From contig CAUQZV010000004.1 in the NCBI GenBank assembly GCA_963522415.1, forward strand, positions 72 through 64,071: a stretch of 64,000 nucleotides of DNA, written 5' to 3'. Shown in pieces: positions 6,801 through 27,664 of this stretch; within the stretch, counting starts at the first letter, position 1, and each line of letters begins with the position of its first letter. Source of the DNA: an uncultured Veillonella sp. (GTDB lineage Bacteria; Bacillota; Negativicutes; Veillonellales; Veillonellaceae). The translations under genes and the position numbers were made by a program. The notes under the pieces were generated by a model that searched no databases, was not told where the DNA came from, and saw only the letters and a program-made list of their open reading frames with translations.

Positions 6801-7491
6801 TATAGAGAATAGTTTGATAGAAATAACTGAACATAATATAAAAAGTTTCGTGGATCGTAAGTATGAAGATCAAATTATTAAACTTCTAGAAATAACATCA
6901 AAAACATATGAAAAAAACTTTATATCTATGTTAGTAGATATGGATATATCTGATGAGTTAGTATATAGGATAATTAATAGTAACCTTTCACAAGAGAGCA
7001 TAAAGATTTTAATAGATTTTTTAGGAGATCGAGTTTTAGTAAAAAAAATAAGGGTTTGTAGATCTGATATATTAAAGATTATTATTGATCAAGGCTTATC
7101 AGATGAAAATATCAAATATATAATAGATATTTTTGATCATATTAATTTGAAAAGAGATTTTATTCAATATTTGGTAGATTCGAAAAAACTTGATAGTTAT
7201 AAAGATGTTATTAGTGAAAATATATTAATATATATTTTGAAGTTAGAGGATATTGATGTGGATATAAAGGTAGACTTAATTATAAATAAGATTTTGCATA
7301 GAGTACCAATAGATAGTATTAAAAAATATATATTAAAGGTACCTGAAATTGAAGAGCTTGCTACTGTTTGGGAACAAAAATATCCACTGCTAGATAATGA
7401 GCAAAAGAAACGTGTAGCTAGTGCATTAGCTAATGTTAATATGATAAAATATCGGCAGGGGAAAAGTGAAAAACGAATTATGTGCTGTTAA
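3814..7491 (+). CDS. YobI-family/KAP-like P-loop NTPase with two TM helices (TmnA-like defence protein)
   Basis: GKYGAGKS Walker A, two hydrophobic helices at about aa 139-190, VFEDLDR Walker B, RTKFFDFIIPIVP and DMRLLKNIVNEY motifs; very AT-rich. Confidence 0.8.
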   Translation: MADINKFNTLNSIILDEINSVYIESLDYALLEDDIKNFAIAGKYGAGKSTIWNSYKKERLQNNKISGKIKSKLNNIITISLGKYVDTTEKSDNSDIILESRVERQIINQILAQIDDKSSNQCKYRFKVTRELSEIYKTIISLSIIVSVIYFFIIKEDIFLYLTTTAKLISYLICFMCFLFGVVLLIYELLKNRNITFSSINFQGVEAKFDNNNLDETILERDIKEIVLLLYSSKVEVVVFEDLDRYDNLDLFTRLRELNYLLNSFIINNKEDRIVKFVYMIKDSLFISKNRTKFFDFIIPIVPIVDSKTSESHLFNLFKKIEDAPNKEFLFKISLYIDDMRLLKNIVNEYIIYSKIIPLSELNLDKDILFSLMAIKNIFPKEFELLQEDKGYIVDVLTQLKSVKNLLIYKFKEKIDSLGKEIECLKSTIIKNEIDELSLLIPTHIAVISGSNKQSWAQFLTEWNKEPEKYYNINEYNSSIHNYNYKLFLERYIFSNTENTERLNKLPTNLDIKSQIQKLELQIQKTLKEREQVYQYNIKKIIASLTSEEVDTLFSEIKSDIKENYYFPLIRFLILNNYINESYYYYKGYYNVNNTGIISVNDIIYMKGLFEDKKIDVLFKIDNPREVIARLHEDDFKRGNFLNKYIFEACLIDNKNKHIISMTASVDERDDYKTLIVALKNIKRNHVEKYINILIEKYDSWIIRILNACIECDVTILHIILVTILSKENIKKGLLDSFKTYIERYNELIFEIPKGYTEIVIINLQKVNIKFNSLKEISHAKEIMIQLEKINAYQLSVTNVIELVKSLLGKSIEYGNLLNEVFTSIELVSTKKYIKDNFTNFIQQYILECSDGEQFINNENIVLEILNSDILEREKIFYISHNQITISNLANLKKCLKNISILHSLLINNTIRFSTENLLILWNSMNRMRYDLITYINRNLNTENAEGILHNNIDICNQLINSSILDFELFKVVIKFVNYKIKKINRNLSVESLNLLIENSLIEITEHNIKSFVDRKYEDQIIKLLEITSKTYEKNFISMLVDMDISDELVYRIINSNLSQESIKILIDFLGDRVLVKKIRVCRSDILKIIIDQGLSDENIKYIIDIFDHINLKRDFIQYLVDSKKLDSYKDVISENILIYILKLEDIDVDIKVDLIINKILHRVPIDSIKKYILKVPEIEELATVWEQKYPLLDNEQKKRVASALANVNMIKYRQGKSEKRIMCC

Positions 7492-20000: not shown

Positions 20001-20032
20001 TTGCACCAAATATTATATAATATTTGGTGCAA
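20001..20032. promoter_or_regulatory. Perfect 32-bp palindromic operator over the abiE promoter
   Basis: TTGCACCAAATATTATATAATATTTGGTGCAA contains TATAAT and abuts the RBS. Confidence 0.75.
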
Positions 20033-20044
20033 GGAGGGAGAAAA

Positions 20045-20653
20045 ATGACATATAAAGAGAAAATTTTAGATAGAATTAATACTCTAAAGGATGGACATGT
20101 TTTTATAGCCAATGATTTTTTTGATATTGCTGGATATGAAACAATTCGTAGTGCTTTAAATCGTCTTGTGGAGAATAATGAAATTACTCGCATTATGAAG
20201 GGAATCTATTTCAAACCAAGATATATTGAAATCATTGATGAATATACAATGCCATCTATTGATGAAGTGGCTAACGCCATTGCTAGAAAATATAATTGGA
20301 CAATTGCACCATCTGGTAATACAGTATTAAATGTATTAGGTTTATCTACACAAGTGCCAGCTACATGGTCATATATATCTGATGGAAGATATGCAAACTT
20401 TACCATTGGTAATACAATAATAGAATTTAAACGTAGAACCAATGGGGATATTTCAAAGATGTCAACTATGACGGCTATGATTATACAAGCTATTAAAGCT
20501 ATAGGTAAAGATAATATAACGGAAAAAGAGATTAACTTTTTAAAAGCAAAAATATCACCAAATGAAAAAGAAGAATTACTATATAATGCAAAAAGCACAA
20601 GTGTTTGGGTATACTATATTATTATGAAAATATGTGAGGTGGAACATGTTTGA
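20045..20653 (+). CDS. DUF6088/AbiEi-like type IV antitoxin
   Basis: N-terminal wHTH (IRSALNRL...ITRIMKGIY); LGLSTQVP motif. Confidence 0.85.
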   Translation: MTYKEKILDRINTLKDGHVFIANDFFDIAGYETIRSALNRLVENNEITRIMKGIYFKPRYIEIIDEYTMPSIDEVANAIARKYNWTIAPSGNTVLNVLGLSTQVPATWSYISDGRYANFTIGNTIIEFKRRTNGDISKMSTMTAMIIQAIKAIGKDNITEKEINFLKAKISPNEKEELLYNAKSTSVWVYYIIMKICEVEHV

Positions 20654-21644
20654 GTATAAGATGATTTCTAAAACAGATTTAGAGCAAGTTATACGTAATG
20701 CTTCTCATAAGTTAGGGATTCATGAAGCTATCCTTGAAAAAGACTACTGGGGGTGTTTTGCGCTTAATTATTTATTTTCAAGTTGCAAATGGAACCAAGC
20801 TTTTACATTTAAAGGTGGAACAAGTCTATCAAAATGCTTTAATCTCATTAATAGATTTTCCGAAGATATAGATCTGATACTCGATTGGAGATATATTGGT
20901 TATGGTATGAATGAACCATGGGATAATCGAAGTAATACAAAACAAGATAAATTCAATAAAGAAACAAATTTAAAAACACAAGAGTTTCTAAAGAGAGAAT
21001 TTCTACCACAGTTACAAAAAGATTTTAGTGAATTGTTGGACGATAGATTTATATTGAAAGTCGATGAAATAGATAAACAAACTATTCTGTTTGAATATCC
21101 TAAATCATTTAGATCTACTTATTTAACACAATCTGTGAGACTTGAAATAGGAGCATTAGCAGCTTGGATTCCTTCAGATGTTGTTACAATAGTTCCCGAA
21201 TTACAAAAAATATATCCTATGCTTTTTAATGGAAGCGGTATAAAGGTGCGCACGGTTTTACCAGAAAGAACATTTTGGGAAAAAGCGACTATCTTACATC
21301 ATGAGGCAAATCGTCCTAAAGAATTAGCAATGCCAAAACGATATGCTAGACATTATTATGATTTATTTTGTATGACTAACTCTATCTATAAGGATGCTGC
21401 TTTAAAAAACATAGAACTTTTACCGAAAGTAGTCGAATTTAAACAAAAGTTTTATCCTAGAGGATGGGCACACTATGAAAATGCTACTAGTAAAACAATT
21501 AAACTAATACCAGATAATGATAGAATTGAGGAAATCAGATTAGATTACAAAGAGATGCAAGAAATGTTTTTTGGGAAATATCCTGAGTTTGACGATATTA
21601 TTGCTGTGTTGAGATCCTTGGAAGATGAATTACATACATTATAG
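20646..21644 (+). CDS. AbiEii/AbiGii nucleotidyltransferase toxin
   Basis: EKDY, FKGGTSLSK, RFSEDID, ERTFWEK, RHYYD. Confidence 0.9.
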   Translation: MFEYKMISKTDLEQVIRNASHKLGIHEAILEKDYWGCFALNYLFSSCKWNQAFTFKGGTSLSKCFNLINRFSEDIDLILDWRYIGYGMNEPWDNRSNTKQDKFNKETNLKTQEFLKREFLPQLQKDFSELLDDRFILKVDEIDKQTILFEYPKSFRSTYLTQSVRLEIGALAAWIPSDVVTIVPELQKIYPMLFNGSGIKVRTVLPERTFWEKATILHHEANRPKELAMPKRYARHYYDLFCMTNSIYKDAALKNIELLPKVVEFKQKFYPRGWAHYENATSKTIKLIPDNDRIEEIRLDYKEMQEMFFGKYPEFDDIIAVLRSLEDELHTL

Positions 21645-21802: not shown

Positions 21803-21841
21803 TTGCCAATGACAAAATATGTCATTCGTGATGGATATACT
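21803..21841 (+). promoter_or_regulatory. 22-bp box copy 1 plus -10 (putative WYL-regulator site)
   Basis: TTGCCAATGACAAAATATGTCA 21803-21824 (TGACA-N5-TGTCA); TATACT 21836-21841. Confidence 0.75.
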
Positions 21842-21895
21842 GTACTCATACTTAGTGTTTTACAAGTGGTATAAGACCACGGAAAGGAAATGATT

Positions 21896-23485
21896 ATGAA
21901 TTTTTGGAAAGTGTTAATGGAATCAATTACAGCGAAGCAAAAACAACAGAATGTACGGATGGGGACACAGTGGTTTGATGTATCTCAAGACACATCAAAG
22001 GTAGTCGTAGCTATGGCACATCCTAGTCAGCTTGGAACGGAAGTTGGTGTGCAAGGAGATACTATGGCTCAAATGCAAGTATCTGTAGAAAGTCAAGAGA
22101 TGGTTCAAGCGCAGTTTGATAGTGCAGAGAATCCCCAATTATCTGCACAAACTAAGGACTTAGTGGAATCAGACTCAGATCAAAGCAACACGATTTCAGT
22201 ACTATCTGGAGCGGTGCACTGTGCAGTGGAAGCCTTTGCACGATTTGGTCGAGCAGATATGTTAGCTCAATTAGTGAAGGAACATTCAGTACATAAAGAG
22301 ATTGAATACTTAGTAGGCTCCTTAGGCGACTTCTCAGAGGCGGCCTATTTGTGTAAAGGGGATGATATGGATTTTGCCGTTCATGCCATTCGTCAAGGTA
22401 TTAAAGATTGTGAATCCATCACAGCTAATAACGAAGTGGATACAGCGTTCTTACAGTACTTACCAACCTTAAAAGAAAGCTTAGGAGATTTATTAGATGC
22501 TACTGTTCATAGTCAAGAATTACAATTAGTTATGATTCAATGGTGCTTACAATGTGGTTTATACCAACAATCGGTCACATTGAGTACAGAATGGGTGCCA
22601 ACGATATTATTCAATAAAGGCGTTTACTACACAGAACGTACGGATATGGAAATCCTATTTAAAAAAGAAATCGAATCGATGCAACGGACTTGGAAAGAGT
22701 GCTTTGTCATTACGTACCGTGATTATGCAGGGAATAAAGCAGTCAGTGTAGCTGGTGGTGATACAGTAGGAGCAGAACTATCTGTGATCCGTGATGAATT
22801 GCGCGGGGCTACTAATAAAAATCAAGTGATGAAGGCCTTTGCTAATTTCTCTTATAACAAAGAAAAAATTCTACCATTTATGCTCGATTTGTACCCAGCT
22901 TATTTACATGTACAACAAAATATACGCTCTGTTGTGGATGTCATGTATTTTCAAGCACAATACCCAGAGATTGAAGGATACTTACGTGAATACTATGAAA
23001 TCCAATGCACTAGCATTAGTTACCATAAACAATATTATCAATTCTTACAACAAAGTGCATCGGACTACGGCGCTTTCATCCGTCAATTCTTGCAAGCACC
23101 AACGGCAGATTTGGTAGAACAATTTGATTTGCATCAATCTGTTAGTTTTGAAGAGGAGGACCATGAGGAGTCCTTAGAATCCGTGGCGGTGGAAACGTTC
23201 CAAAAACAACGCATCAAGTTGATCCGTGATTGCCAAGCGATGTTAGCCTACGGCAGTGCAAAAACAGATTTACCACAATTAGAAGCGCTACAATTCTTGG
23301 TGGAATTCCATTACATTCGCCATCTTCGCAACAATATTAACCATGCAGCAGATAAAACTTTGGTCATCACTAGTGATATGGTGAAAGAAGCAGTGTCTAC
23401 CTTGGTATCGTCTTTACAAGCTGGACAGTGGCTCGGAAATGTAACAGTGGAAGAAGAATTACAAAAAAATAGAAATATTATATAA
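21896..23485 (+). CDS. Csx1/TM1812-like protein with C-terminal HEPN (RxxxxH) and no recognisable CARF domain
   Basis: AVEAFARFGRA, DFSEAAYLC, IQWCLQCGLYQQSVTLSTEWVP and LRNNINHA segments resemble the C-terminal half of TM1812/Csx1; N-terminal ~100 aa are Q/S-rich; start chosen by RBS spacing. Confidence 0.65.
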   Translation: MNFWKVLMESITAKQKQQNVRMGTQWFDVSQDTSKVVVAMAHPSQLGTEVGVQGDTMAQMQVSVESQEMVQAQFDSAENPQLSAQTKDLVESDSDQSNTISVLSGAVHCAVEAFARFGRADMLAQLVKEHSVHKEIEYLVGSLGDFSEAAYLCKGDDMDFAVHAIRQGIKDCESITANNEVDTAFLQYLPTLKESLGDLLDATVHSQELQLVMIQWCLQCGLYQQSVTLSTEWVPTILFNKGVYYTERTDMEILFKKEIESMQRTWKECFVITYRDYAGNKAVSVAGGDTVGAELSVIRDELRGATNKNQVMKAFANFSYNKEKILPFMLDLYPAYLHVQQNIRSVVDVMYFQAQYPEIEGYLREYYEIQCTSISYHKQYYQFLQQSASDYGAFIRQFLQAPTADLVEQFDLHQSVSFEEEDHEESLESVAVETFQKQRIKLIRDCQAMLAYGSAKTDLPQLEALQFLVEFHYIRHLRNNINHAADKTLVITSDMVKEAVSTLVSSLQAGQWLGNVTVEEELQKNRNII

Positions 23486-23492
23486 AAAAGTA

Positions 23493-23531
23493 TTGCCAAT
23501 GACAAAATATGTCACTTTCATATGGCATACT
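23493..23531 (+). promoter_or_regulatory. 22-bp box copy 2 plus extended -10
   Basis: Identical TTGCCAATGACAAAATATGTCA 23493-23514; TGGCATACT 23523-23531. Confidence 0.75.
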
Positions 23532-23628
23532 AATAGCATAGAGCACATAGTTCTAATACTTGGGGACATAGAAGAGAGAGAACATGTGATATCTAGTTAG
23601 AATATTGTTAATCATTTAAGGAGGATGT

Positions 23629-24549
23629 ATGGAACAAAAAGAAACAGTATTGTCTGCTGTAGAACAGGCAAAGGAGAAAATGAATGCACTGCTAGAGGAT
23701 GTGAGCCGCTTTGAAAGCCATCAATTTGATGCGGGAAATAAGGATTTACAGTACTTTTTCGGCGTAGATGTGATTGCCGCATTAGAATCCAGAGAGGATG
23801 AGCACAGCACTGCAAGTGGGGCTCGTAAAGCAGGTCTAGCATATTTTACGAAAAAAGTGTATAGCCAGCGAAAAGAAGCTGTGAAAGAGATGATTGCTAC
23901 CTATGTAGATCGGACGCTAAAACGATATAACTGGACCAATGAAGTGGAATATGTAGAGGACCCGTTCGGACAGGATGATGATACAGAAGCATATCAAGAA
24001 ATCCTACGAGAAACAAAGTTCCCTGTACGTAATTATCTTTCCTTAGAATCGGATGGTATCTACCAGCAATGTAACGAACAGATTCGTCAGATTTTACAAG
24101 AGTTGCAGGACACCATCGTGGCTACTTGCGATGATACTATTTCATTGGATAGTCAGTTTACACAATGCTTTGTGGTACCTTCCTTACAAGATGTGTTGGA
24201 TAACTTGAATGGCTTGGATACGAATGCCTATTGGGTGAACACCATCGTGCAAGACTTTGAAAAGGGGTACTATCATAAACCTGAGCGATATATCGACTAT
24301 ATTGAAGTCCACGATATGATACGCGATAAAGGATTTTTATCTCTACTTGGTTTTGATACTTGTTATATCTATGGTGATATGGGAGATGCGGTGCTTGAAC
24401 TGTCGAAGGACTTGGCACTTTCAGTGGAACTTAGCGATTTAAACCTATACGTAAAAGAACAGGTGCAGTTACTGATGAAAGAATATGTAGCAGCTGTGAA
24501 AGCCCTAGTTGATGCAAAATGTCAGTCTATTATAGAACAAGTAGCATAA
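23629..24549 (+). CDS. Hypothetical acidic, probably helical protein
   Basis: 306-aa ORF with AAGGAGG RBS; no motif recognised. Confidence 0.8.
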   Translation: MEQKETVLSAVEQAKEKMNALLEDVSRFESHQFDAGNKDLQYFFGVDVIAALESREDEHSTASGARKAGLAYFTKKVYSQRKEAVKEMIATYVDRTLKRYNWTNEVEYVEDPFGQDDDTEAYQEILRETKFPVRNYLSLESDGIYQQCNEQIRQILQELQDTIVATCDDTISLDSQFTQCFVVPSLQDVLDNLNGLDTNAYWVNTIVQDFEKGYYHKPERYIDYIEVHDMIRDKGFLSLLGFDTCYIYGDMGDAVLELSKDLALSVELSDLNLYVKEQVQLLMKEYVAAVKALVDAKCQSIIEQVA

Positions 24550-24575
24550 TGTATAGCAGGTAATACCTGAAAGAG

Positions 24576-24622
24576 AAAGCCACCATCTTGCCTATGACAT
24601 TTCATGGTGAGACGGTGGCTTT
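24576..24622. terminator. Terminator-like hairpin
   Basis: AAAGCCACCATCT/AGACGGTGGCTTT. Confidence 0.7.
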
Positions 24623-24641
24623 ATGTATACATAAAAAACTA

Positions 24642-24670
24642 TTGCCTTAGTTGAGAGAGTTTTTTATAAT
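24642..24670 (+). promoter_or_regulatory. Sigma-A promoter of the small ORF-WYL unit
   Basis: TTGCCT-17-TATAAT. Confidence 0.65.
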
Positions 24671-24725
24671 TAAAGTAATTAGTATTTCGAGAGCAAATAC
24701 TTTCATAAGAGAAAGGACAAAAGAG

Positions 24726-24884
24726 ATGAAACGATACATGGTCAAATTTCACTATCCTAATAGCACGACGGTACACACTGCCTATGAAAGTGCCCATTCC
24801 CGTAGCGAGGCAGCGAACAAGGTGAAAGCCTGTGAGGCAGGTTGTGGTCGTATTGTGAAAATTATTGCTACTGTGGAGCGATAA
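24726..24884 (+). CDS. Small basic 52-aa protein upstream of the WYL gene
   Basis: GAAAGGA RBS; MKRYMVKFHY...CEAGCG...; stop is 1 nt before the WYL ATG. Confidence 0.6.
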   Translation: MKRYMVKFHYPNSTTVHTAYESAHSRSEAANKVKACEAGCGRIVKIIATVER

Positions 24885-24885
24885 G

Positions 24886-25854
24886 ATGGGGGACAAGATA
24901 GACAAGACGCAGCGAATTTTGACGATGCAACGTCGCCTATTACAAGGGGAAGTGCTGTGCAAACCAGAACTGGCAAAAGAGTTTGGCATTAATGAACGGT
25001 CCGTACAACGAGATATAGACGATTTGCGAGCCTATTTACATGATGAAAGCACTCTCTATGGAAATGAACAGCTCATCGTCTATGATCAAAAGCGGAAAGG
25101 CTATGTCTTCAGCCATGGAGAGTCCGCTTGCTTATCCGTCAATGAACTAGTGGCCATTGCGAAGGTAATGCTAGATAGTCGTTCCCTATTACGAGATGAT
25201 ATGGGGCGTATATTGAATAAACTGTTGAAAACATTTTTACCACATGAAGAGGTAAAGCTCGTAGAAAATCTCATTCGCAATGAATTGCACCACTATGTAG
25301 AATTACGACATAAGAAAAACGTGTTGCCTCTATTGCAAGACTTATCGAGAGCCATACAAGAACAGAGATATATAACAGTATCCTACGAAAAAAGTACGAA
25401 CAAAGAAGTGGTCACACGGAAGTTATCCCCATTGGGCATCTGTTTTTCGGAGTACTATTTCTACTTAACTGCCTATATGGACCGAGAAGAACGAAGCAAA
25501 ATTCCGAAAGAATTGCAGGACTTTCCTACTATTTATCGCTTAGATCGTATCCATAGCTTGAGCGTCGAAGAGGAGCACTACCAAGTGCCATCCTATACAT
25601 CACGGTACCAAGAGGCAGAGTTTCGTAAACGAATCCAGTTTATGTACGGCGGTAGATTACAACGAGTGACCTTTACCTATGTAGGGCATGATATCGATGC
25701 CATCCTAGATCGATTGCCAACAGCCACCATTACCTGGTATGAAGAAGAAACACACACCTACCATATCCGTGCAGAAGTGTATGGAACGGGAATTTGGCGG
25801 TGGATACGGAGCCAGGGGGATGCTGTGACGGATGTTAGAGTGGAGGAGTTGTAG
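24886..25854 (+). CDS. HTH-WYL(-WCX) transcriptional regulator
   Basis: wHTH ELAKEFGINERSVQRDIDDLR; WYL core PLGICFSEYYFYL...IYRLDRI; C-terminal WIRSQG. Confidence 0.92.
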   Translation: MGDKIDKTQRILTMQRRLLQGEVLCKPELAKEFGINERSVQRDIDDLRAYLHDESTLYGNEQLIVYDQKRKGYVFSHGESACLSVNELVAIAKVMLDSRSLLRDDMGRILNKLLKTFLPHEEVKLVENLIRNELHHYVELRHKKNVLPLLQDLSRAIQEQRYITVSYEKSTNKEVVTRKLSPLGICFSEYYFYLTAYMDREERSKIPKELQDFPTIYRLDRIHSLSVEEEHYQVPSYTSRYQEAEFRKRIQFMYGGRLQRVTFTYVGHDIDAILDRLPTATITWYEEETHTYHIRAEVYGTGIWRWIRSQGDAVTDVRVEEL

Positions 25855-25931: not shown

Positions 25932-26767
25932 GTGAATAGAAAAGTGGAAAATAGTAAATATGTTGCTTTTGAAATATTAGGGGTTAAGAAGAATGGCAAT
26001 AAGAATTCTTTTATATTTGATAAAGATGCGGAATGCATAATTACAAATGATAAATATATAAGTAAAATACAAATATCATCAGATATAAGTAAGGCTATCT
26101 TTTATATACATGACTCACTTGAGATTTTAGAAGATGATGTTTTGGAAATAGTTAATTACCTTTCTCTATATCTTGGAAAGATGATGGTTGCACTTCTAAA
26201 AAATAATGTATACTATTCTAATGTTTTACTAAAACCTTCTATTAGTATTTCAGCGTTACATATATTAGAAAATAAAGTTAGATTATCTGACTGTACTCGG
26301 ATTACTGATTGTGTGGCTCGTTGTGCTATACTTGATAATGGTAATGAAATTTAAAAAAATGGATAGAAGATGTTGAACTTTCAGACTATATTAGAAAAGA
26401 TGATAAGTATAATATTTTGTTTTTATTACTTCAGGAAAATAATATTGCTCAAAAGTATATGGCGATGTATGCGTATCTGATGTGCTTAGTAAAGGAAATA
26501 TATTCTAGTCCAAAAGAGAGACAAAAAGAAGTAATACAATATATTTCAGATAATTGTTCGAGGGTTGGAATTAATTTGAACCTAACTTCAACAACTCGCC
26601 CAGGGGCCCCCGCCGATGAGGAAGAAGACCAATTTACTGCTTTGCGCAATAAGATAGCTCATCCAGACACTATAAATGCTAATAATAATGTTAACACTAA
26701 TATAGGTGAAACCATTATAAACGAACTTGCATCAATCATTTGCTGTGCAATAGAAGATGTACCTTGA
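25932..26767 (+). pseudogene. Frameshifted HEPN-like gene (~278 aa if restored)
   Basis: Adding one T at ~26351 joins the two ORFs (GNEI-LKKWIEDVELSDYIRK...); C-terminal ALRNKIAH RxxxxH motif. Confidence 0.65.
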
Positions 26768-26776
26768 TACTCTGAC

Positions 26777-27664
26777 TTAATAAATTTTTGTGGAAAAATA
26801 AAATAGAAGGTCATCTTTTGTTACAATTAATGTACTACCAAATAACTCAAAGGAAAGGAGACCTTCTTATGAAATTTTATTTTACAACAAGTAGTAGATA
26901 ATTGTACTGATTCTTTAACTTTTTTGAAAAGTAGATATTTAATGATAAAGCAATATATAAACGAATCGAACCCTATTGTATCAGTGAAATTATTAGTCGT
27001 GCTATATCTATGAGTTATGCTAACGCAGCAGAAGGTTCTACCCCAGCTAAACTTTCACTGCAGTCCGATAGAATTTAGTGTAGCCTACCTACGTCTCTGA
27101 CTACACTGCAAACAGCACTAAAACTAAAGTCTGTTTAAAGTGTTTATATTGAAGTGGATGAAGATTATGTAAGTTTGCAAACTGGTAAGAAGATTAACAT
27201 GAAGTTGGCTACAGTGCACACGGACAAGTTAGATGTTGATTCTAACAGTATGGAGTTAGTCGAAAAATATTCTACTATGGGATTAGAAACACGAGGAGAA
27301 TTTTGGATGCAGATAGAGAGCTACTTGTCAGAAACGTATATGAGTAGCCCTAAGGTTGTATATCATTGTCGATGATGCTAAATGGATTTAACGAGACCTA
27401 GATGTGCTTCCTAAGAGTGAGTTTATTTTAGATAGATTTCATCTATTTAAAAAGTATGACAAAGATCTATGGAAAACAAAGTAGAAAAGAGGTATTTGAA
27501 AGCTCAGAAACTCTTCAATATCGAGAATTGGAATCTGGGGTGTAGAGGAGAAAAGTAACGGATGTTTGCAAGTCATTAAACATGGTGGATGCAAAATTCT
27601 TTAGTAACTAGAAACCCTCTTTTAAAGTTAGGCAACTATTTTCCAACAAAAACTTGATACCGTA
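26777..27664 (+). mobile_element. Degenerate ISLre2-family (UPF0236) IS relic
   Basis: Fragments IEVDEDYVSLQ, KLATVH, W..IESYL..TY, IVDDAKWI*, FILDRFH; imperfect ends TTTTTGTGGAAAA / TTTTCCAACAAAAA; RBS-sequestering stem AGAAGGTC/GACCTTCT. Confidence 0.7.

Follow-up and report, generated by a model that had tools for sequence, protein, structure and literature searches.

Here we describe a small gene module in a stretch of 64,000 nucleotides (nt) from an uncultured Veillonella sp. (assembly GCA_963522415.1, contig CAUQZV010000004.1, positions 72 to 64,071 of the forward strand), which is called the window in the following. Between its positions 21,803 and 25,854 lie a gene for a Csx1-like HEPN protein of 529 amino acids (aa) and a gene for a helical protein of 306 aa, each behind a copy of the same palindromic box, followed by a small open reading frame of 52 aa and a regulator gene of the WYL family. 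With a probability of about 0.55, we read this module as a small regulon of the DriD/DdaA type, in which the WYL protein would induce a Csx1 ribonuclease (RNase) without CARF domain, independent of cyclic oligoadenylate (cOA), together with its 306-aa partner. That the module acts against phages appears to us slightly better than an even bet. The box, its geometry, the link to the WYL subfamily, both domain losses and the purifying selection were taken from sequence, and the HEPN dimer was modelled.

The 22-mer TTGCCAATGACAAAATATGTCA is found at 21803-21824 and, as an exact match, at 23493-23514. In a genome of 1.78 Mb, the chance expectation for a second exact copy is about 7e-7. The claim of the original prediction that both effector genes are preceded by an identical palindrome-containing box is confirmed for the copies starting at 21803 and 23493. 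A third copy with the same spacing precedes a 213-aa gene on contig C24, unlinked to the window, whose product has one hydrophobic segment and no family match. No -35 hexamer was detected 16-18 base pairs (bp) before the -10 hexamers TATACT and CATACT. At promoter 1, the spacer between box and -10 hexamer has eight different sequences among 11 copies (the window and ten loci of relatives) at a constant length of 11 bp, and box 1 itself is kept in all ten relatives' loci spanning the module. TTGCCA was considered as -35 element and rejected, as no usable -10 hexamer lies at 17 bp. A LexA-type box was found at none of the four promoters within one mismatch of the consensus. Allowing up to one mismatch, the pattern of the 22-bp box was detected in 13/22 further Veillonella genomes, in 1/1 and 0/1 genomes of two small genera, and in 0/82 and 0/12 genomes of the family's two larger genera.

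The assignment of the box to the WYL protein comes from distant relatives of the regulator. With a profile built from 21 WYL relatives, 586 of 600 pattern matches in species genomes could be confirmed. The top 80 of these hits gave 79 loci, of which five from Veillonella were set aside and 74 analysed. The core pattern was taken from the window, of which the 74 loci are independent. Here, the core GACA-N5-TGTC occurs 117 times, compared to 7-24 occurrences for the other spacers of 2-9 nt. A -10 hexamer follows 12 nt after this core (11 nt after the longer core of the window) in 83 of 234 oriented cores, whereas any other distance gives 0-7. A -35 match of 5/6 is absent from all 99 such sites, and 48 of them carry a TG extension. 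Sites within 200 nt upstream of the WYL gene were observed in 42 of 73 distant loci and in 23 of 2000 random windows. With a matrix trained on the 74 loci, the three best sites of the whole genome are the two boxes of the window and that of C24 (26.0, 24.7 and 24.5 bits; next 18.4), and sites above 21 bits appeared in one of three block shuffles and in one of 12 simulated (Markov) genomes. No repair gene lies downstream of any of the three top-ranked sites. No PF13280 match other than the WYL gene was found in the genome (85% complete); the ratio of nonsynonymous to synonymous substitution rates (dN/dS) of the WYL gene is 0.025. Core and spacing thus follow the WYL subfamily. Very probably, the WYL protein of the window binds at the box, which has the geometry of an activator site; this agrees with the earlier proposal of WYL control over the box genes. 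Recognition-helix type was also compared with box presence (51/56 with R-[ST]-x-x-R-D), but locus length confounds this comparison, which was left aside.

The gene neighbours in the 74 loci are, to judge by their annotation, defence-like, with dynamin-like genes (32) being the commonest, followed by HerA-like (28), BnzB-like (14) and PDC-M09A-like (8) genes; the labels were transferred from cluster representatives. In the loci examined, the box heads dynamin-like, HerA-like, BnzB-like and type I-B cas operons. The latter case is represented by L171:3840-11453 (genome G607), where a WYL relative and a cas6-like gene are followed by a box, an 11-bp spacer and TATAAT before a cas8b-cas7 operon, and which is a candidate for a WYL-activated CRISPR-Cas system in Bacillota. 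At L142:1761-9885 (Lachnospiraceae), six box-like sites were observed, some of them preceding housekeeping-looking genes.

The first cargo gene has its best PADLOC match in the CARF-HEPN profile (E = 2.2e-39), which bears out the Csx1-like HEPN identity given to it earlier. The match covers profile positions 191-549 of 551 and leaves 1-190 unmatched, and all 14 PADLOC hits to the 529-aa protein begin at residue 110 or beyond. The 647-aa Csx1 of a congener (G011) matches the same profile from position 1, and the 529-aa protein aligns to it only from its residue 182 onwards (25% identity, E = 3e-38). The CARF motif pattern (D/N-x-S/T-x3-R/K) is present in 30 of 39 relatives and in none of six module proteins. 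In a tree of the shared core, comprising 37 rows after 8 of 45 had been dropped as long-branched or redundant, the module clade is sister to full-length Csx1 of the same genus (support 100/99). Judged by these alignments, the 529-aa protein is a Csx1 that lost its cOA-binding CARF domain and, as an RNase by inferred activity, a derivative of the CARF-HEPN Csx1 proteins and not a member of them.

What was retained consists of a conserved N-terminal peptide of about 38 aa, a variable linker (39-99) and a helical core with HEPN domain (100-529). The dN/dS values follow this layout, with 0.20 for residues 1-38, 0.74 for the linker and 0.07 for residues 100-529 (10 sequences, the broken G006 copy excluded). 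R478, N479, N482 and H483 are invariant in 33/33 homologues. Modelling of the core (99-529) as a homodimer gave a score of 0.66, compared to 0.00 for the best of three controls; the mark was reached by 20/30 solved pairs and by 1/23 single chains. The runs agree in at least 66% of the contacts at a predicted local distance difference test (pLDDT) of at least 76 and place residues 478 and 481-484 of both copies at the interface. The score may reflect likeness to solved Csm6/Csx1 dimers. A sequence search of the PDB returned no hit at E<=10 for the Csx1 protein, and a profile search returned only spurious hits. TtCsm6 without CARF is as active as the full-length enzyme in the absence of cOA (PMC4748810). 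The same source mentions a Streptococcus mutans Csm6 structure without CARF, which is not necessarily the natural form.

The 306-aa protein gave no family hit above cut-off in Pfam, NCBIfam or PADLOC and no GTPase hit. It has 28 close homologues (dN/dS 0.10), and by profile search it could be linked to a protein that bears the name ferredoxin (E = 1.1e-4). Profile comparison to the corresponding ferredoxin-helical family resulted in a probability of 98.6 (E = 9e-16, residues 57-300), and the profile of this family recovers the 306-aa gene in its own genome (E = 1.2e-22). The N-terminal 4Fe-4S domain of the family is missing. On the basis of these profiles, the 306-aa protein is a member of the ferredoxin-helical family that lost its 4Fe-4S domain. 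Elsewhere, the family gene is the last one of a three-gene unit, which is located downstream of WYL in L020, L021, L024, L100 and L186 (the last a near copy of L021) and has a box in front of it in L193; the stretches fetched for L187-L192 and L194 contain neither WYL nor box. This unit, comprising proteins of about 460-500 aa and about 270 aa besides the ferredoxin-helical one, is uncatalogued, recurs in Bacillota (L100, L024, L193, L194) and is a candidate defence system; its 460-500-aa gene is weakly PDC-M40B-like in two of four tested. The boxes of L193 (genome G121) lie at 7363 and 13545, one before the unit and one before a dynamin-like gene, and the two WYL relatives of G121 are encoded on another contig.

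A model of the 306-aa protein based on the family alignment reached a pLDDT of 75.5; an initial fold from close homologues (pLDDT 41, no match) was discarded. The best natural match of the better model is the trunk of BDLP (Z 9.0, root-mean-square deviation 6.3, 194 residues aligned), the first row being a designed bundle (Z 9.7), and six dynamin-family chains are among 50 rows (157-216 residues, Z 6.4-9.0). Foldseek found nothing at E<=0.001 in the PDB or BFVD. A GTPase-less dynamin-like stalk is no more than a lead from modelling. Annotation leads scoring below 0.9, namely dynamin-like helical for the 306-aa protein (0.78) and T7 gp2-like for the 52-aa protein (0.79), were not used as evidence.

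In their sources, close homologues as well as the nearest loci with a name carry the label Veillonella. A CARF-less csx is present in 14 of 23 genomes of the genus and so is the WYL orthologue; 13 genomes share both and the two exceptions are fragmentary assemblies. The order box-csx-box-306-52-WYL is found in 10 loci, including one that is decaying (G006), where all three large genes decay together and csx contains two stops. In G018, csx has a frameshift. An empty site between the flanking housekeeping genes was detected in three of five module-negative genomes checked. Within Veillonella, the genes of the module travel together and the box precedes the orthologues in 10/10 spanning loci, just as predicted. 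Across Negativicutes such co-occurrence was not seen: 102 more distant WYL loci yielded no homologue of Csx1, of the 52-aa protein or of the third-site protein, so that the combination looks genus-specific. Among 300 genomes of the class, matches outside the genus are 21-34% identical and lie in long frames. As far as conservation and gene order tell, the module is a real, conserved and genus-restricted regulon. In PADLOC-DB 2.0 it is uncatalogued, as had been supposed: no full system set is reported, only Csx1 and WYL accessory models match, and the 306-aa and 52-aa proteins have no PADLOC hit. In the literature, mostly outside subscription journals and without supplements, where DdaA or BrxR tables could list subfamily members, we found no description of the module, of the motif in Bacillota or of a WYL-controlled CARF-less Csx1. 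Relatives of the WYL, ferredoxin-helical or 52-aa proteins were not found in viral contigs; 57 box matches there, none with WYL within 1.5 kb, were treated as chance.

From these observations, the following mechanism can be proposed. The WYL protein would be made together with the 52-aa protein from an ordinary promoter of its own and its dimer would bind TGACA-N5-TGTCA. Its WYL-WCX pocket is assumed to bind single-stranded nucleic acid arising from phage replication or DNA damage, and the ligand-bound protein might then recruit RNA polymerase to the three promoters lacking a -35 element. Targets would be the CARF-less Csx1 RNase, the helical and possibly dynamin-stalk-like protein without 4Fe-4S domain, and the unlinked single-pass membrane protein. 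Since the cOA-sensing CARF domain is lost, the output of Csx1 would be set by the amount made, and the likely outcome is inducible RNA degradation and growth arrest independent of type III cOA signalling. A more far-reaching version remains tentative, with the odds against it: a stand-alone abortive-infection system, in which the cOA sensor (CARF) and the 4Fe-4S sensor were swapped for one WYL sensor of single-stranded DNA (ssDNA), so that it is blind to phage ring nucleases, and which is one case of a Bacillota-wide subfamily of WYL activators with GACA-N5-TGTC promoters marking many undescribed defence operons.

The relation of the module to CRISPR has to be considered as well. No CRISPR array was detected on the window's contig by a simple repeat search, so that part of the earlier statement that the window has neither cas gene nor array stands for the contig; not every reading frame was scanned for cas genes, and the genome has a III-D system elsewhere. 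This comprises a III-D operon with GGDD Cas10 on C25 and arrays on C5 and C25, and a full-length Csx1 bearing CARF is encoded elsewhere. The idea that transcription replaces cOA control is consequently upheld only in the CARF loss of the Csx1-like protein: cOA control is present in this genome, and the module runs beside it. Among the 23 genomes of the genus, 10 have III-D Cas10. Five module genomes are without it, two of these with another Cas10 and three (G008, G006, G018) with no Cas10 match; in G008 (99% complete) the module is intact. Such a distribution weakly supports independence of the module from type III systems. At C25:14306-18343, a PDC-M09A/B-like pair adjoins the III-D cas operon, where no box-like site above 12 bits was found.

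Several points weigh against the regulon as proposed. The compared genomes are close kin and not independent, and the absence of Csx1 from the 102 distant WYL loci belongs here, too. cOA strongly raises the activity of Csm6 (PMC12214007), so without CARF the enzyme may be limited to basal activity. With Z below 13, the match to dynamin stalks is under the safe level of the tool for helical bundles. The subfamily profile matches 7u02_B, which we take to be DriD as this fits the published residue numbers, only weakly (E = 0.011, positions 148-318). Two residues of the DriD ssDNA pocket (PMC9186387), R176 and R204, are not kept and have V176 and T215 as counterparts. Further points touch the direction of control. 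In 42 of 73 family loci a box directly precedes the WYL gene itself, as operators of repressors do; promoters with an extended -10 could work without activator; and G004 (99% complete) retains box 3 with no WYL match found. All three suit a regulon of the same extent in which WYL acts as a repressor in the manner of BrxR/CapW, blocking extended -10 promoters until ssDNA releases it; repression would also fit a potentially toxic RNase, and defence-linked WYL proteins are often repressors (PMC9122601, PMC13622015). The fixed phasing of the -10 hexamer and the lack of any -35 match at 99 sites are in line with DriD instead, the repeats of BrxR lie downstream of the -10 (PMC9122601) and the window's WYL gene has no box of its own. 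We consider a repressor unlikely and the WYL protein, by its promoter geometry, quite probably an activator.

Another possibility is that the regulon serves DNA damage or general stress without anti-phage role, acting by RNA turnover and membrane remodelling like the didA/bapE outputs of DriD. DriD (PMC13004042), DdaA (PMC12392091) and SiwR chiefly serve the response to DNA damage, the module genes have a host-like guanine-plus-cytosine (GC) content of 0.40-0.46 compared to 0.30 for the flanking genes, and the third target encodes a membrane protein among housekeeping genes. We regard this as rather unlikely: the three top sites are not followed by repair genes, the two cargo genes stem from neighbourhoods of defence type, and three close relatives have an empty site in place of the block. 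Much the same applies, with a little more doubt, to a role of the CARF-less Csx1 as modulator of type III signalling, for example in mixed dimers with full-length Csx1 that damp or bypass control by cOA when DNA is damaged. The CARF-less protein descends from a full-length Csx1 of Veillonella and coexists with one in G010 and G016; its own genome has III-D Cas10 and another Csx1; and csx is broken in two of three module genomes without Cas10 match (two stops in G006, frameshift in G018), which also counts against the independent regulon proposed here. Against the modulator stand the intact csx of G008, the identity of only 25% to the full-length sister, the invariant catalytic motif and the predicted homodimer. 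Finally, the genes might have met by chance in an insertion hotspot, with the box belonging to another regulator. The GT2-acyltransferase interval does gather unrelated genes, and with 85% completeness another regulator may be missing from the assembly. Yet core and spacing track the WYL subfamily in 74 distant loci, gene order is kept in 10 loci and the genes decay jointly in G006, which makes chance assembly highly improbable.

The regulator and the separately promoted 52-aa reading frame are present as originally described, and a promoter similar to TTGCCT-17-TATAAT was seen in all six relatives' loci inspected. The 52-aa gene was also thought to be part of the WYL-switched module, which we do not maintain: it has no box, and in three effector-less genomes (G005, G007, G019), where boxes and cargo are lacking, it persists (88-94% identity) next to a WYL stub restricted to the HTH. 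It therefore belongs with the regulator's transcript and not to the regulon. The stubs (L158:9762-10192, L159, L160) comprise about 83 aa with 55-60% identity.

On both sides, the module is flanked by genes that had been noted as neighbours. The AbiE pair is confirmed; the downstream HEPN gene turned out as a frameshifted gene in two pieces with a HEPN_RiboL-PSP match (E = 4.6e-5) below cut-off. AbiE belongs to two lineages and is partial or absent among module genomes, and AbiEii as MNT-type antitoxin partner of the HEPN protein was rejected on these grounds. The downstream gene, broken and private to this genome, was rejected as module member. From distribution and composition, both are variable passengers outside the unit. 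A perfect 16-bp inverted repeat just 5' of abiEi (20001-20032) is likely an AbiEi autoregulatory operator. In 25932-27375, the HEPN-like gene is followed by an ISLre2 transposase remnant. A hairpin behind the 306-aa gene is a possible terminator.

Some further observations concern the box. In G012 (L173:8269), box 2 is found with the spacer and -10 hexamer of box 1, which suggests gene conversion between the promoters or an assembly merge. In G003 (L168:276-4998), the same 22-bp box heads a dynamin-like gene pair on another contig, one of them LeoBC-like (E = 2.3e-13), and the pair is likely a fourth target of the regulon in that genome. The third box and its membrane gene (C24:22222-24457) lie in a housekeeping neighbourhood, with downstream genes presumably of the menaquinone pathway. 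In G018 the membrane gene is missing and its box retained.

Table 1. Features of the module and its surroundings (window coordinates).
Feature	Coordinates	Strand	Remarks
AbiEi/AbiEii pair (context)	20045..21644	+	30% GC; variable or partial in relatives
Box 1	21803..21824	+	core TGACA-N5-TGTCA at 21810-21824, palindrome; predicted WYL dimer site
-10 hexamer TATACT, promoter 1	21836..21841	+	11 bp 3' of core; no -35 at 16-18 bp
CARF-less Csx1 (TM1812-like) HEPN protein, 529 aa	21896..23485	+	alternative start 21890, giving 531 aa
HEPN motif R478-N-N-I-N-H483	23327..23344	+	fits R-X4-6-H; invariant in 24/24 close homologues
Box 2	23493..23514	+	same sequence as box 1; core 23500-23514
-10 hexamer CATACT with TG extension, promoter 2	23526..23531	+	11 bp 3' of core; no -35
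306-aa helical protein	23629..24549	+	homologue of C-terminal domain of 4Fe-4S-ferredoxin/helical family; ferredoxin absent
GC-rich hairpin	24579..24619	+	3' of 306-aa gene; read by eye, not called by scan
Sigma70 promoter TTGCCT-17-TATAAT	24642..24670	+	serves 52-aa gene and WYL gene; no box
52-aa conserved small protein	24726..24884	+	no family; stop 1 nt before WYL start; dN/dS 0.05
wHTH-WYL-WCX regulator, 322 aa	24886..25854	+	PF13280 E = 5.8e-12; HTH_11 E = 6.9e-5 (below cut-off)
Frameshifted HEPN-like gene, two pieces (context)	25932..26767	+	30% GC; 0 hits in 20 relatives' loci

Since DdaA is an established WYL activator of defence genes, wiring of this kind has a precedent; the new part, which we did not find in print, is the sensor-stripped cargo. 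In the Veillonella group, the seat of control seems to have shifted from protein to promoter. A CARF-less Csx1 under purifying selection allows a direct test whether transcription alone can control a HEPN effector, and such an enzyme would, if the reading is true, bypass phage ring nucleases. That both box-controlled genes are without N-terminal sensor suggests a repeatable route to new defence modules from old parts. The box with its fixed spacing also offers a simple search key for defence operons of gut Bacillota.

Among the closest known systems is DriD of Caulobacter crescentus, to which the regulator shows only remote sequence similarity. The DriD site, ATACGAC(X)7GTCGTAT, lies at a single set distance from the -10 of promoters without -35, and in the promoter oligonucleotides of that paper the -10 starts 11 nt after GTCG by our count, same as in the window (PMC13004042). 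Both share the wHTH-WYL-WCX layout and an xGAC-N7-GTCx palindrome over the -35 position. Bases are read by Arg37 and Arg41 of DriD and the backbone is contacted by Thr38 (PMC10853764); the recognition helix of the window protein has R38, S39 and R42 at the same spacing, a correspondence of spacing and not of alignment. For the residues binding ssDNA (PMC9186387), a weak profile alignment gives five of seven counterparts (Y167, R178, Y193, R218, Y254), those of R176 and R204 being missing. In domain layout and in a phased site without -35, the regulator is, judged by sequence, of the DriD/DdaA type. In contrast to DriD, it belongs to a Bacillota subfamily and its predicted targets are a Csx1 derivative and two proteins without known function, whereas DriD acts on repair or division genes.

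DdaA of Moraxellaceae is a WYL activator of repair, restriction-modification and CRISPR genes, thus including anti-phage targets, and its site CGACAATATGTGTCG has the same core GACA-N5-TGTC as the window boxes (PMC13010146, PMC12392091). It acts globally from sites about 50 bp upstream of the start, whereas the module has three sites, local cargo and a core that ends 24 bp before the inferred start. BrxR and CapW likewise adjoin defence-type genes and have inverted repeats with a 5-bp spacer. The repeats of BrxR are 11 bp long and lie downstream of the -10, whereas the window boxes end 11 bp upstream of it in fixed phase and no box precedes the WYL transcription unit, an arrangement other than that of BrxR/CapW operators. 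As to the cargo, the 306-aa model aligns end to end with the stalk or trunk regions of BDLP, SynDLP, IniA, LeoA and the Eleos system at Z values under the safe level for helical bundles, but has no GTPase domain, and its parent family carries a ferredoxin in place of the GTPase. The first cargo protein shares with Csx1/Csm6 the helical core, the HEPN domain with RNxxNH and a predicted dimer through this motif, and is nested among full-length Csx1 of Negativicutes. It differs from them by the lack of CARF with its DxTGGxR motif, by its position outside any cas locus and by the WYL box upstream.

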